From: a virus
Length of the DNA stretch: 11,502 bases
Direction: 5' to 3' (one strand)
Virus record (IMG/VR): IMGVR_UViG_3300006226_000583
In this document: one piece after another, positions 7,875-9,340 of the stretch
Layout of the letters: each line of letters opens with the position of its first letter
Numbering within the stretch: the stretch's first letter is position 1
Program-made: the position numbers and the translations under genes
Notes under the pieces: model-generated
What the model was told of the DNA's origin: nothing
The model's database searches: none
The model's input: only the letters and a program-made list of their open reading frames with translations

Positions 7875-9029
7875 ATGCAGGTTATTGAAAAGAACATTGA
7901 CGAATTAGTCGAGTATGCGAACAACGCTCGCATAAACGATAAAGCCGTTGCGCCGGTAGCGGAGAGTATTAGGGCGTTCGGCTTTAAACAACCGATTGTT
8001 ATTGACGGCAGTAACGTAATAATTGCCGGACATACTCGGTTAAAAGCCGCCAAGCAGTTAGGCTTGAAAACCGTCCCGTGTGTCGTAGCGGACGATTTGA
8101 CGGAGGAGCAGGTAAAAGCCTACCGTCTGTTGGACAATAAGACCAACGAATTCTCCGAGTGGGATTTGACGAAACTGGCGATTGAATTGCCGACTATCGA
8201 TTTCGGCGGGATGGGCATTGACATGAACATCATCGACTTCAAACTGCCGGAGGTTAAGGAAGAGAAAGCGAAGGAAGCCCCGCCTCCGCCGGTCATGTTG
8301 GAGGAGATACTTAATCATATGCGGGAAGTCGATTTGATTGCAGTGCAGTTCAGTGGTGGGAAGGATAGCGTGTGTGTTCTGAACTGGGCGATGGAGGCTG
8401 CAAAACAACTCGATAAAAAAATCGTAGCGTGTTTTATCGAGACGGGCGCAGAATACCCGTGTGTAACGGCACACGTTATCGAAACCTGCGACCGTCTTGG
8501 CGTGCCGTTAGAAATCCTGAACCCCAAACAACATCTGCTTCAGTACTATACTGAAAAGAAGGCGTTTCCGAACGTGATTTATCGAGATTGTATGTTTAAA
8601 TTCATACATGACGTGACGGACGAGTATCTGTGTTCACGGGAGGAATCGTTCGTACTGTTACGGGGCGGGCGGAAGGATCAAAAGACCGGCTTATCGAAGA
8701 GCCGGGAAGTGTTTGAAAAAACACATAAGGGGCGGACGTTCAAGATTCTTTCCCCGTTTTACGCTTTTACCGCCGAACAGTATCAGGCGGAACTTGAAAA
8801 GGTTAAGGATTTCATGTGGCATGGCTATGCGAAGGGCTTCGTGCGTACCGCATGCTGGATGTGTCCGTTCCAGACGGAAGAGCAGTTCGCCGCCTTGAAA
8901 AAGCATTATCCGGTATTGTGGGAAAAGATGAAATCCTACGTACATGAGTGGGACTACTTGGATGTCGGAAACGACCCGTACCGTAAGCGGATGGATGCTG
9001 CGTTCAAAATTACTACAGAAACGAAATGA
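7875..9029 (+). CDS. Fusion protein, 384 aa. A ParB/sulfiredoxin-like N-terminal domain is joined to a PAPS-reductase/PP-loop ATP-pyrophosphatase domain (DndC/CysH-like) with a C-terminal Cys cluster.
   Basis: - ParB-N-like segment: VIDGSNVIIAGHTRLKAAKQLGL.
- Acidic/Pro linker: EEKAKEAPPPP.
- PP-loop motif: FSGGKDS.
- Cysteines: YPC, ETC and ACWMCPF near the C-terminus, as in Fe-S PAPS/APS-reductase-like enzymes. Confidence 0.85.
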   Translation: MQVIEKNIDELVEYANNARINDKAVAPVAESIRAFGFKQPIVIDGSNVIIAGHTRLKAAKQLGLKTVPCVVADDLTEEQVKAYRLLDNKTNEFSEWDLTKLAIELPTIDFGGMGIDMNIIDFKLPEVKEEKAKEAPPPPVMLEEILNHMREVDLIAVQFSGGKDSVCVLNWAMEAAKQLDKKIVACFIETGAEYPCVTAHVIETCDRLGVPLEILNPKQHLLQYYTEKKAFPNVIYRDCMFKFIHDVTDEYLCSREESFVLLRGGRKDQKTGLSKSREVFEKTHKGRTFKILSPFYAFTAEQYQAELEKVKDFMWHGYAKGFVRTACWMCPFQTEEQFAALKKHYPVLWEKMKSYVHEWDYLDVGNDPYRKRMDAAFKITTETK

Positions 9030-9340
9030 GTATTAAAGACGTAAAAGAACTGAAAATCGGTGCAGTTCACTATACGGTCGATCGTCGCACTCCGCCGATA
9101 ACCGAGTGCGACGGTAGCACCGTCGTAGGTAGAGTGAACTATAACGATGCGTTATTAATTATCGCCGACCATCTTTGTAGCGAAGTCGAGACTATTACGA
9201 TTTTGCATGAAAGTCTGCATGCGTTGTTTCGGCATGCTGGAGTTTTAAACCACGACGAGCAGTTAATTGAAACTCTGGCGAATTTCCTTTTTGATTTTAT
9301 CAGGGATAATCCTGATTTTATCAAAGCCATTCAAAAGTAA
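9026..9340 (+). CDS. Small HExxH-motif protein, 104 aa, a putative zinc-metallopeptidase-like or regulatory protein. It is translationally coupled to the upstream gene.
   Basis: ATGA start/stop overlap at 9026-9029. It contains ILHESLHALFRH (an HExxH motif). Confidence 0.55.
   Translation: MSIKDVKELKIGAVHYTVDRRTPPITECDGSTVVGRVNYNDALLIIADHLCSEVETITILHESLHALFRHAGVLNHDEQLIETLANFLFDFIRDNPDFIKAIQK

Follow-up and report, generated by a model that had tools for sequence, protein, structure and literature searches.

A phage family that joins a ParB_N domain to a PAPS-reductase-fold PP-loop enzyme and probably modifies phage DNA

Introduction

What does a virus gain from a gene whose product begins as a ParB-like protein and continues as an enzyme resembling PAPS reductase? 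Such a gene, coding for 384 aa, lies in a viral DNA stretch of 11,502 nucleotides (IMG/VR virus record IMGVR_UViG_3300006226_000583), which was analysed over its whole length and is called the window in what follows; its stop codon overlaps the start of a second gene, for a 104-aa protein with an HExxH motif. The original prediction, made from the sequence alone, regarded the two genes as one candidate module for DNA modification or anti-defence, of the kind seen in Dnd, Ssp and Dpd systems. Virome studies routinely count phage 'PAPS reductase' genes as auxiliary genes of sulfur metabolism. All positions are given in the numbering of the whole 11.5-kb window, and both open reading frames (ORFs) lie where they had originally been placed.

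The fusion protein is a member of a phage family that has received little study and whose probable task is to modify phage DNA. The best reading of its function is that of a DNA-targeted, ATP- and Fe-S-dependent sulfur-transfer enzyme serving anti-restriction, which we hold to be plausible rather than probable. At least some phage 'PAPS reductase' genes would then be ATP-dependent, probably Fe-S enzymes tethered to a ParB domain and sited among DNA-modification genes. In most relatives the fusion gene lies beside a gene for a TudS-like desulfidase, a pairing which suggests a new sulfur-based modification of nucleic acids, or a desulfurase-independent route to phosphorothioates, in viruses of bacteria and archaea. 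The complete module, mis-annotated as a methylase, is present in the cultured Methanoculleus virus Blf4/L4768, which makes the proposal testable. What the window copy itself offers is more modest: it is a genuine and intact member of the family without the partner, and its HExxH neighbour is an unrelated accessory gene.

A ParB_N domain fused to a PP-loop enzyme

That a ParB_N domain is fused to a PP-loop enzyme of the PAPS-reductase type, the architecture originally proposed, is confirmed for the window, and chance is excluded by the E-values of the domain matches together with the conservation seen across the family. The gene and its parts are as follows.

7875-9029, + strand: gene for the ParB_N/PP-loop fusion, 384 aa (ORF; Pfam, PHROG and NCBIfam matches)
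7875-8240, + strand: ParB/Srx N-terminal domain, aa 1-122 (PF02195), with GHTR at aa 52-55 (nt 8028-8039) and DN at aa 87-88
8241-8291, + strand: flexible low-complexity linker, aa 123-139, KEEKAKEAPPPP, variable and gapped in the family alignment
8292-9029, + strand: PAPS-reductase-fold PP-loop ATP-pyrophosphatase domain, aa 140-384 (PF01507; NCBIfam; Foldseek)
8352-8369, + strand: SGGKDS PP-loop motif, aa 160-165
8589-8591, + strand: codon of C239
8661-8681, + strand: RGGRKDQ motif
8844-8867, + strand: RTACWMCP motif, which holds CWMC (aa 327-330, nt 8853-8864)

A protein in a public collection (P0001) is 100% identical to the 384-aa fusion. The N-terminal domain matches Pfam ParB_N (PF02195) over aa 18-88 with an E-value of 3.2e-9 (37.2 bits, gathering cut-off 26.3) and the PHROG family phrog_620, 'ParB-like partition protein', over aa 1-139 (E 1.9e-48), and the profile of the fusion family matches the structures of the CTPases Noc, Spo0J and ParB with E-values of 3e-10 to 1e-9, aligning aa 2-109 only. 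The features of a canonical partition ParB, a helix-turn-helix (HTH) domain and a C-terminal dimerisation domain, are missing; linker and PP-loop domain follow ParB_N in their stead, and a Pfam scan found no ParA in the window. The C-terminal domain matches Pfam PAPS_reduct (PF01507) over aa 155-331 (E 9e-9, 36 bits, gathering cut-off 22.5) and phrog_424, 'PAPS reductase', over aa 144-355 (E 4e-20). Far below threshold, NCBIfam adds archaeal 'hypothetical' PAPS-like families (PRK13795-type, E 7e-16), LarE, TilS, CysD and TtcA, and in the PP-loop region the family profile matches the ATP-using proteins NcsA, GMP synthase, LarE, TilS, TtuA and QueC.

In an alignment of 38 family members, N17, P40, G52 and R55 of ParB_N are invariant, and H53, D87 and N88 are at least 90% conserved. 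The SGGKDS motif and the C-terminal Cys cluster, both pointed out in the original prediction, proved to be hallmarks of the family: S160, G161, G162, D164 and S165 are invariant, as are three cysteines only, C239, C327 and C330. Further invariant residues are G264 of the RGGR motif, W315, G317, Y318, F322, R324 and T325. In the window protein the catalytic residues are all intact, and Ala stands in place of P18 in the NPR motif.

An AlphaFold2 model computed from the 38 family members has a mean predicted local distance difference test (pLDDT) score of 89.6 and consists of two well-folded domains and a disordered linker, with pLDDT below 50 across aa 123-133. Foldseek placed the model closest to the [4Fe-4S] APS reductase 2goy (E 6e-8), CysH and the PAPS domain of eukaryotic FAD synthase, with a probability of 1.00 for 2goy, 6vpu, 1sur and 2oq2, and also recovered the [4Fe-4S] tRNA thiolases NcsA (6scy, E 6.6e-6) and TtuA (5b4f, E 1.1e-5). 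Judged by these motifs and matches, the PP-loop domain is a PAPS-reductase-fold ATP pyrophosphatase in which three cysteines are conserved; C239, C327 and C330 most likely hold a [4Fe-4S] cluster with an open iron site. A 4Fe-4S centre bound by three cysteines has been attributed to DndC, likewise a PP-loop enzyme (PMC10853773), and clusters of this kind are known from TtuA and NcsA.

A distinct family of shuffled modules

A search over 5.8 billion proteins yielded about 47 full-length relatives of the fusion, with 30-66% identity, and, below them, hundreds of matches to ParB_N only. Most of the latter are fusions of ParB_N to an N6/N4-methyltransferase; a minority comprises a few ParB_N-GNAT fusions and stand-alone ParB_N proteins. 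When the PP-loop half was used as the query, almost exclusively ParB-fused or ParB-adjacent proteins were recovered before the E-value jumped from 1e-27 to 6e-8, at which point other PF01507 proteins began. From this sharp break we conclude that the PP-loop clade is, at the level of sequence, distinct and tied to ParB_N. Loci were gathered from IMG/VR (39), GTDB genomes (22) and JGI metagenomes (15) and by exact-protein look-ups; with the PP-loop proteins of these viral, metagenome and genome loci clustered at 90% identity, the fusion family comprises 52 lineages.

The two halves of the protein have different relatives. ParB_N of the window (aa 1-120) is 55-71% identical to that of PP-loop-less proteins (median 63% over 73 hits, which were selected as top hits), namely N6/N4-methyltransferase fusions, GNAT fusions and stand-alone ParB_N phage proteins. 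To its nearest PP-loop relatives its identity is 67%, and the median over 50 PP-loop fusions is just 47%. The halves are likewise discordant in single relatives (P0027, 65% in ParB_N and 35% in the PP-loop domain; P0033, 33% and 45%), and at one locus (L005) they are encoded by separate adjoining genes. These discordant identities and the split genes indicate that ParB_N and PP-loop domains have been shuffled as modules. ParB_N is a common platform for different enzymes, which act on DNA in the methyltransferase case; ParB_N domains of this kind have been described as nickases or DNases that are regulated by nucleoside triphosphates (NTPs) and are nonspecific for sequence (PMC5512222).

The closest relatives of the window copy, P0002 at locus L077 and the protein of L087, are 65-66% identical to it; P0002 stems from the sample that also yielded L050, the contig with the exact match. 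Another relative, P0005 (L076, positions 1148-2350; 58% identity), misses about 32 residues right after the PP-loop motif in the family alignment and has no PF01507 match; the gene may be decaying, or the assembly may be at fault. In Methanoculleus virus L4768 (NC_074642.1, L001), gp05 at positions 1242-2486 is labelled 'DNA modification methylase', yet it is a ParB_N-PP-loop fusion in which no methyltransferase domain was detected; JGI similarly labels the relative P0003 'site-specific DNA-methyltransferase'. Such annotations have probably spread from the ParB_N-methyltransferase fusions by way of the common ParB_N domain.

A TudS-like desulfidase gene beside most relatives

The neighbourhoods of the homologues, which the original prediction had proposed to search for Dnd, Dpd or Que partners, hold none of these recurrently. 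Instead, a gene of about 135 aa with the Pfam domain PF04463 ('2-thiouracil desulfurase', DUF523/TudS) lies at most 300 nt from the fusion gene in 41 of the 52 lineages, and in 36 of the 43 that have at least 450 nt of flank on each side; examples are L006 7777-8157, L077 106-516 and L001 2532-2942. Of these 41 lineages, 39 have the partner downstream, 26 of them on the opposite strand and 13 on the strand of the fusion gene, and two have it upstream. The two closest relatives of the window copy carry it immediately 5' of the fusion gene. The 26 downstream opposite-strand partners are convergent with the fusion gene, with 3' ends that touch or overlap, inside phage gene arrays that are otherwise co-directional; this orientation hints at separate regulation.

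All eight partner genes sampled score above the Pfam gathering threshold (E 3.5e-16 to 1e-29), and JGI gene calls also list PF04463 at related loci. In TudS the cluster-ligating and catalytic residues are Cys10, Cys43, Glu45, Ser101, Ser103 and Cys104 (PMC10611767), and the phage partners match them with the motifs S.C, CPE and SPsC, in this order and at least 90% conserved. By these residues the partner appears to be a catalytically intact TudS-like [4Fe-4S] desulfidase. A PF04463 gene hidden in the window was considered and rejected, the best hit of a six-frame search with the hidden Markov model (HMM) having an E-value of 0.6. Other lineages without the partner are L002, where the fusion gene lies alone beside a transposase on a bacterial contig, L008, L011, L026, L035 and L076.

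In the Dnd, BREX, polyvalent-protein and TudS/RudS literature, which was covered incompletely, no description of the ParB_N-PP-loop family or of its TudS-like pairing was found, and an equally incomplete full-text literature search returned nothing that mentions DUF523 together with PAPS reductase. It is already known that DNA modification and counter-defence employ PP-loop enzymes resembling PAPS reductase and that ParB occurs fused to DNA-modifying enzymes.

Genomic context of the family

At 30 loci the large ORFs that follow the fusion gene within 7 kb were surveyed; they include large terminase subunits (TerL) of four Pfam types (Terminase_6, Terminase_3, GpA and TerL_ATPase) and portal proteins of five types. 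This diversity of terminases and portals places the module where early and late genes meet in many tailed phages that are unrelated to one another. ParB_N-methyltransferase genes occur nearby in eight of 36 loci, and L004 has, in order, a Lar-like gene, a ParB_N-methyltransferase gene, HigBA, the ParB_N-PP-loop fusion and PF04463. Hosts, as inferred from the titles of metagenome-assembled genomes, are Planctomycetota, Akkermansia, Bacillota, Hyphomicrobiales and Methanosarcinales. The sole cultured carriers found are the Methanoculleus viruses L4768 and Blf4, in which the fusion (gp05), PF04463 (gp06) and TerL (gp07) are encoded consecutively. At L024 the TerL downstream of the module (7993-10437) is unusually long and matches LAGLIDADG_3; it appears to carry an intein or a homing-endonuclease insertion.

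In the window, the 2.2 kb on the 3' side of the HExxH gene contain neither terminase nor portal. The DNA methyltransferase that had been noticed 1.4 kb upstream is indeed of the Dcm type, and its 3' end lies 1384 nt before the fusion gene.

5514-6491, + strand: Dcm-type C5-cytosine DNA methyltransferase (PF00145, E 9.5e-32; phrog_363, E 1e-61; PCQ motif; PADLOC MTase_II and DruM profiles)

Proposed function

We prefer to read the fusion as the sulfur-transfer enzyme outlined in the Introduction because its ParB_N is common to the ParB_N-methyltransferases, because of its position ahead of the packaging genes and its anti-restriction neighbours, and because of a precedent in a vibriophage. ParB_N would serve as an NTP-binding, DNA-binding and/or nicking or clamping module that brings the catalytic domain to phage DNA, as it delivers the methyltransferase in the common ParB_N-methyltransferase fusions. 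The PP-loop domain would spend ATP to adenylate an oxygen of the DNA, and the putative [4Fe-4S] cluster on C239, C327 and C330 would then hand over sulfide, replacing that oxygen. One possible target is the backbone phosphate, as proposed for DndC, SspD and BrxP, which would fit the adenylate-forming chemistry of CysD and FMN adenylyltransferase, enzymes of the PAPS-reductase fold; the other is a base carbonyl, as in TtuA and NcsA, which would fit better in that the known relatives of the partner strip sulfur from thiocarbonyl pyrimidines. DNA modified in this way would evade host restriction. The adjoining desulfidase of most relatives could supply sulfide through a [4Fe-5S] intermediate or could erase the mark, and the window copy would have lost its partner or would have it encoded elsewhere.

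A bolder version, which we consider doubtful, makes the ParB_N-PP-loop fusion and the adjoining TudS-like gene a self-sufficient system of two phage genes, by which sulfur would be written into DNA without a cysteine desulfurase, the window copy being a partner-less variant. The mark would be a thiolated base or a phage-made phosphorothioate, and the desulfidase would obtain sulfur from the thionucleotides of the host or else remove the mark. Thiolated bases are not known to occur in natural DNA.

The nearest parallel to the proposed delivery by ParB_N are the ParB_N-DNA methyltransferase fusions of phages and plasmids (PF02195 with PF01555, phrog_498), which share with the PP-loop fusion a ParB_N domain that is 55-71% identical over about 120 aa and a genomic place where the early region ends, ahead of the packaging genes, and which in L004 are encoded side by side with it; they differ in that an S-adenosylmethionine-dependent methyltransferase stands where the fusion has its PP-loop/Fe-S catalytic module. 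The precedent is p0018 of vibriophage 44E38.1, a fusion of a PAPS domain to Dam, which together with one adjacent gene confers resistance to the Dnd system of the host (Piel et al., bioRxiv 10.1101/2021.05.05.442762). There too, a phage PAPS-reductase-like domain is fused to a DNA-directed module and acts in counter-defence, but the partner is Dam, the domain order is another one and no TudS-like partner has been reported. A tblastn search with the PP-loop domain of the window against 50,697 phage records (E at most 1e-3) matched 22 records, none of them from Vibrio, so the PAPS domains of the two proteins are not detectably close. Phage PAPS reductases also figure as candidate anti-defence genes in a survey of 2026 (PMC13551039).

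With DndC, SspD and BrxP the fusion appears to have in common the PAPS-reductase-fold PP-loop, the likely [4Fe-4S] cluster on three cysteines and a role of DNA modification in restriction conflicts, and its pairing with a domain of the ParB superfamily recalls DndB and SspE of the Dnd and Ssp systems. It differs from these systems in that ParB_N is fused to the enzyme and is not a separate regulator, and in that its genes are carried by phages and come with a TudS-like partner. DndC has been described with an additional Cys dyad (PMC10853773), which the fusion family does not conserve. BrxP consists of a PAPS reductase, DUF4007 and a Cys-rich ferredoxin-like region (PMC12839542), and a context of PglZ, BrxC or BrxL was not found for the fusion gene.

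Several observations weigh against the proposed function. The PADLOC profiles for DndC reach E-values of only 0.013 and 0.024 and align over aa 157-207, the PP-loop alone, and the profiles for SspD (E 1.5e-7, 29 bits, aa 157-357) and BrxP (E 7e-7, profile positions 130-336 of 779) do no better than the generic PF01507. Cysteine desulfurase, DndD, DndE, SspB and SspC are absent from the window, and none of them recurs in related loci. The partner lies on the opposite strand in 27 of the 41 lineages that have it (26 downstream, one upstream), which argues against simple co-expression, and in the window, where PF04463 is missing, the fusion may work differently or may be decaying. The action of known TudS-like proteins on thiocarbonyl pyrimidines would fit a thio-base, RNA or nucleotide substrate better than a phosphorothioate, and ParB_N by itself has no known sequence specificity.

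By sequence, then, the fusion family is not DndC, SspD or BrxP, and the kinship to Dnd, Ssp and Dpd systems that had been suggested is not supported. DndA, DndB and SspA genes are likewise neither in the window nor among the conserved neighbours of related loci. As originally noted, a cysteine desulfurase or a partner resembling tRNA-guanine transglycosylase (TGT) is lacking: no window ORF scanned matches the cysteine desulfurase, TGT, QueC, QueD or QueE families. Traits of Dpd systems (DpdA, QueC/D/E) are absent from the window ORFs, the match to QueC being limited to the PP-loop motif (E 0.007). DNA modification or anti-restriction as such is still the best-supported reading, given the type of ParB_N, the context and the vibriophage; it is the membership in Dnd, Ssp or Dpd that lacks support.

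Alternative explanations

The strongest rival, in our assessment, is a role in the thiolation of RNA or nucleotides, owing to the known activities of TudS and RudS, although we consider it unlikely. The module would thiolate host tRNA or nucleotide pools, the partner would remove the sulfur again (e.g., from 4-thiouridine, s4U) and ParB/Srx, instead of binding DNA, would act as an NTPase- or kinase-like catalyst, by which the phage would reprogram translation or recycle thionucleotides. All characterized TudS and RudS proteins act on thiouracil, 4-thio-UMP or tRNA s4U, and a phage RudS is active on s4U (PMC11417400, PMC10611767). NcsA and TtuA, which resemble the fusion in structure, thiolate tRNA, and the fusion is like TtuA, NcsA/Ncs6 and TtcA in the arrangement of its PP-loop and putative three-Cys cluster; furthermore, the ParB/Srx fold includes sulfiredoxin and the serine kinase SerK (profile matches), and archaeal viruses have the RNA-binding PUA domain fused to PAPS-reductase-like domains. 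The thiolases and TudS/RudS act on tRNA or nucleotides without a ParB fusion, the CxxC zinc-finger or other accessory domains of the thiolases are missing from the fusion, and a thiolase-desulfidase operon was not found described in the literature covered. Three observations speak against this rival: the Pfam scan found no PUA or THUMP RNA-binding domain in the fusion, its ParB_N is of the DNA-methyltransferase type (55-71% identity), and its position at the boundary of DNA-modification and packaging genes is that of phage DNA methyltransferases. Rather unlikely as well is anti-defence without DNA modification, in which the protein would mimic or sequester a DndC/SspD-type component or the sulfur supply of Dnd, Ssp or BREX type 4 systems, or would nick or degrade host DNA through ParB_N. 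The anti-Dnd activity of the vibriophage fusion (bioRxiv 10.1101/2021.05.05.442762) would agree with it, as would the NTP-regulated nickases or DNases reported among the ParB_N domains of conflict systems (PMC5512222) and the location of the gene among variable accessory genes. Yet strict conservation of all catalytic PP-loop residues and of C239, C327 and C330 extends over phages of such diverse hosts as Planctomycetota, Akkermansia, Bacillota and methanogens, which argues for a general enzymatic reaction and not for inhibition of one host system, and a conserved TudS-like partner that appears catalytically intact is hard to square with mimicry.

The pairing of a PAPS-reductase-like with a ParB-like protein also exists in the IbrA/IbrB (YbdN/YbdM) proteins, so that the fusion might be a regulatory pair of this type in one chain, co-activating phage or prophage expression; this we regard as improbable. 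By annotation, IbrAB co-activate the expression of prophage genes. In E. coli K-12 one operon pairs YbdN, a PAPS-reductase/DUF3440 protein, with YbdM, which has a ParB-like nuclease domain, and hhalign relates the family profile to YbdN with a probability of 95.7% and to YbdM with 92.1%. The YbdN match, however, covers 55 columns around the PP-loop; YbdN lacks RTACWxCP, and its C-terminal DUF3440 has no Pfam match in the window protein. The two domains are split between genes in reverse order, and no PF04463 is annotated beside ybdNM; we take YbdN and YbdM, on profile similarity, to be distant, split homologues. The reading under which such genes usually pass, an auxiliary metabolic gene (AMG) in the form of a phage cysH, for PAPS/APS reductase, which would boost host sulfate assimilation, is very improbable. 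It can draw on the PF01507 match, on the names that JGI gives to relatives, 'PAPS reductase/FAD synthetase' among them, on APS and PAPS reductases as the nearest solved folds and on a virome literature that treats such genes as AMGs (PMC12323421; bioRxiv 10.64898/2026.02.18.706556). A direct alignment, though, sets FSGGKDS of the fusion, a canonical ATP-binding PP-loop, against FSGAEDV of APS reductase 2goy, the loop of CysH being a degenerate one that serves sulfonucleotide binding instead of ATP hydrolysis, and NCBIfam gives CysD 17 bits where the cut-off is 195 and no CysH model at all. The overall fold is that of CysH (2goy, 1sur), and YRDC of the fusion faces YRD...ECC of APS reductase, a segment in which two Fe-S ligands of the latter lie. 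The catalytic Cys of CysH lies near its C-terminus in the motif ECGLH; the last Cys of the fusion is C330, with none in the 54 C-terminal residues and none conserved there in the family alignment, and the catalytic Cys therefore has no counterpart. The fusion to ParB_N and the location ahead of the terminase have no metabolic logic, and the sulfate-assimilation genes cysDN, cysC and cysIJ are absent from the window and from the recurrent neighbours at 36 loci. Canonical PP-loop, missing C-terminal Cys, ParB_N fusion and context thus contradict the cysH reading: by its motifs the fusion is not a sulfate-assimilation reductase and does not fall into that clade, the outcome that had been named as a refutation of the original prediction.

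The HExxH mini-protein

The original prediction had coupled the fusion to the HExxH protein and had noted the overlap between their genes. The overlap itself is real: in the ATGA of AAATGAGT, TGA of the fusion gene occupies 9027-9029 and ATG of the HExxH gene 9026-9028.

9026-9340, + strand: HExxH mini-protein gene, 104 aa, a stand-alone minimal ImmA/IrrE-like zincin (phrog_1233, E 2e-15; phrog_13742 'peptidase', E 1e-5)
9206-9220, + strand: HESLH motif, aa 61-65
9251-9271, + strand: HDEQLIE motif

A HMMER search gave 1025 representative clusters at E-values of at most 1e-3, nearly all of them stand-alone proteins of 95-130 aa, with a few tandem duplications. The metalloprotease-type motif is borne out by 60 relatives, in which H61, E62, H65 and N95 are invariant and G12, Y16, G35, G72 and E78 at least 90% conserved. 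Family members match Peptidase_M78 (ImmA/IrrE), DUF6782 and SprT-like families weakly, with PF06114 matches in 10 of the 60 relatives (best E 1.9e-4), and the profile aligns with IrrE (3dte) in the region of the HExxH helix, with an E-value of 0.004; the window protein itself stays below the gathering score of every Pfam family. On the strength of the conserved HExxH and Glu and of these weak matches, the 104-aa protein is best described as a minimal zincin-type metallopeptidase domain. Its AlphaFold2 model is weak (pLDDT 60, from a four-sequence alignment) and returned only noise in Foldseek (best E 2.2), and no conclusion on the fold was drawn from it. An HExxH and a downstream Glu are found also in ImmA/IrrE (Peptidase_M78) and in the zincin 'MPTase' domains that phage polyvalent and MuF proteins contain (Iyer et al. 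2017, PMC5512222), and as in those a beta-strand region is predicted to precede two helices that carry HExxH and E. The 104-aa protein differs from them in being much shorter (about 100 aa), stand-alone and without an HTH repressor partner, and no HTH gene adjoins it in the window.

Only two of the 52 lineages have an HExxH gene next to the fusion gene, and not on the same side: in the window it follows, with the ATGA overlap, and at L091 it precedes. There, an 80-aa mini-HExxH ORF (2064-2306, + strand; HMM E 5.6e-8), which ends shortly past the HExxH helix and is apparently truncated, lies 6 nt 5' of a distant ParB_N-PP-loop gene (33% identity), in a slot that is empty or differently filled in the sister contigs L092-L094. 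A search with phmmer and the 60-sequence HMM found no HExxH copy in the first 72 related loci, and a neighbourhood scan with a narrow HExxH alignment returned two weak loci only. Elsewhere, the three closest homologues (66-67% identity) have neighbours unlike anything in the window, and in four of eight cultured Firmicutes phages sampled the gene follows the portal and MuF/head-morphogenesis genes, where the zincin domains of MuF proteins provide a likeness; in the remaining four it lies among small early genes (two), immediately 5' of the small terminase subunit gene (one) or directly after two DNA methyltransferase genes (one, phiCD211).

So rare an adjacency leaves the functional coupling unsupported, and the HExxH protein was rejected as a conserved partner of the fusion. 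We read the two as accessory genes that favour a variable slot near the packaging genes and not as a conserved two-component system. In the window the HExxH protein would be an independent accessory zincin, co-transcribed and translationally coupled with the fusion, outside the conserved module; a looser link between zincin and DNA-modification genes is conceivable.

Other features of the window

Searches of phage and plasmid collections with the nucleotide sequence of the whole window returned zero matches, scans of the window for promoters and terminators gave no excess over shuffled expectation, and neither tRNAs nor Rfam families were detected in it. Free of tRNAs and Rfam families, too, is a region of about 800 nt (3322-4130) that is without any + strand ORF of at least 50 aa amid a tightly packed + strand array.

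A gene at 502-3012 (+ strand, 836 aa) matches Vault_3 (E 4.6e-10) and MVP_shoulder (E 2.3e-26) and ends in a long C-terminal coiled coil; these matches make its product a protein like the major vault protein, encoded on a prokaryotic mobile element. Among the 50,697 phage records, homologues of it (39% identity, about 92% coverage) occur only in LR756500, LR756501 and LR756503, uncultured 'huge phage' genomes of 462-735 kb. That the window is a fragment of one of these known huge phages was rejected, the vault-like gene alone being in common, with no further synteny. As vault-like homologues are confined to these large uncultured phages and no terminase or portal follows downstream, the element may, as a guess, be a large phage with dispersed modules.

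Two small ORFs near the end of the window, at 10170-10412 (+ strand, 80 aa) and 11175-11372 (+ strand, 65 aa), have no Pfam or PHROG match and are paralogues of one another (local alignment score 133). Both terminate in EPEKD and share the pattern Y.D.DV.P.G..Y...LY.YK....KTLDE.R..VR.WT..DWYK, and together they bracket a DUF6927 gene at 10452-11081.

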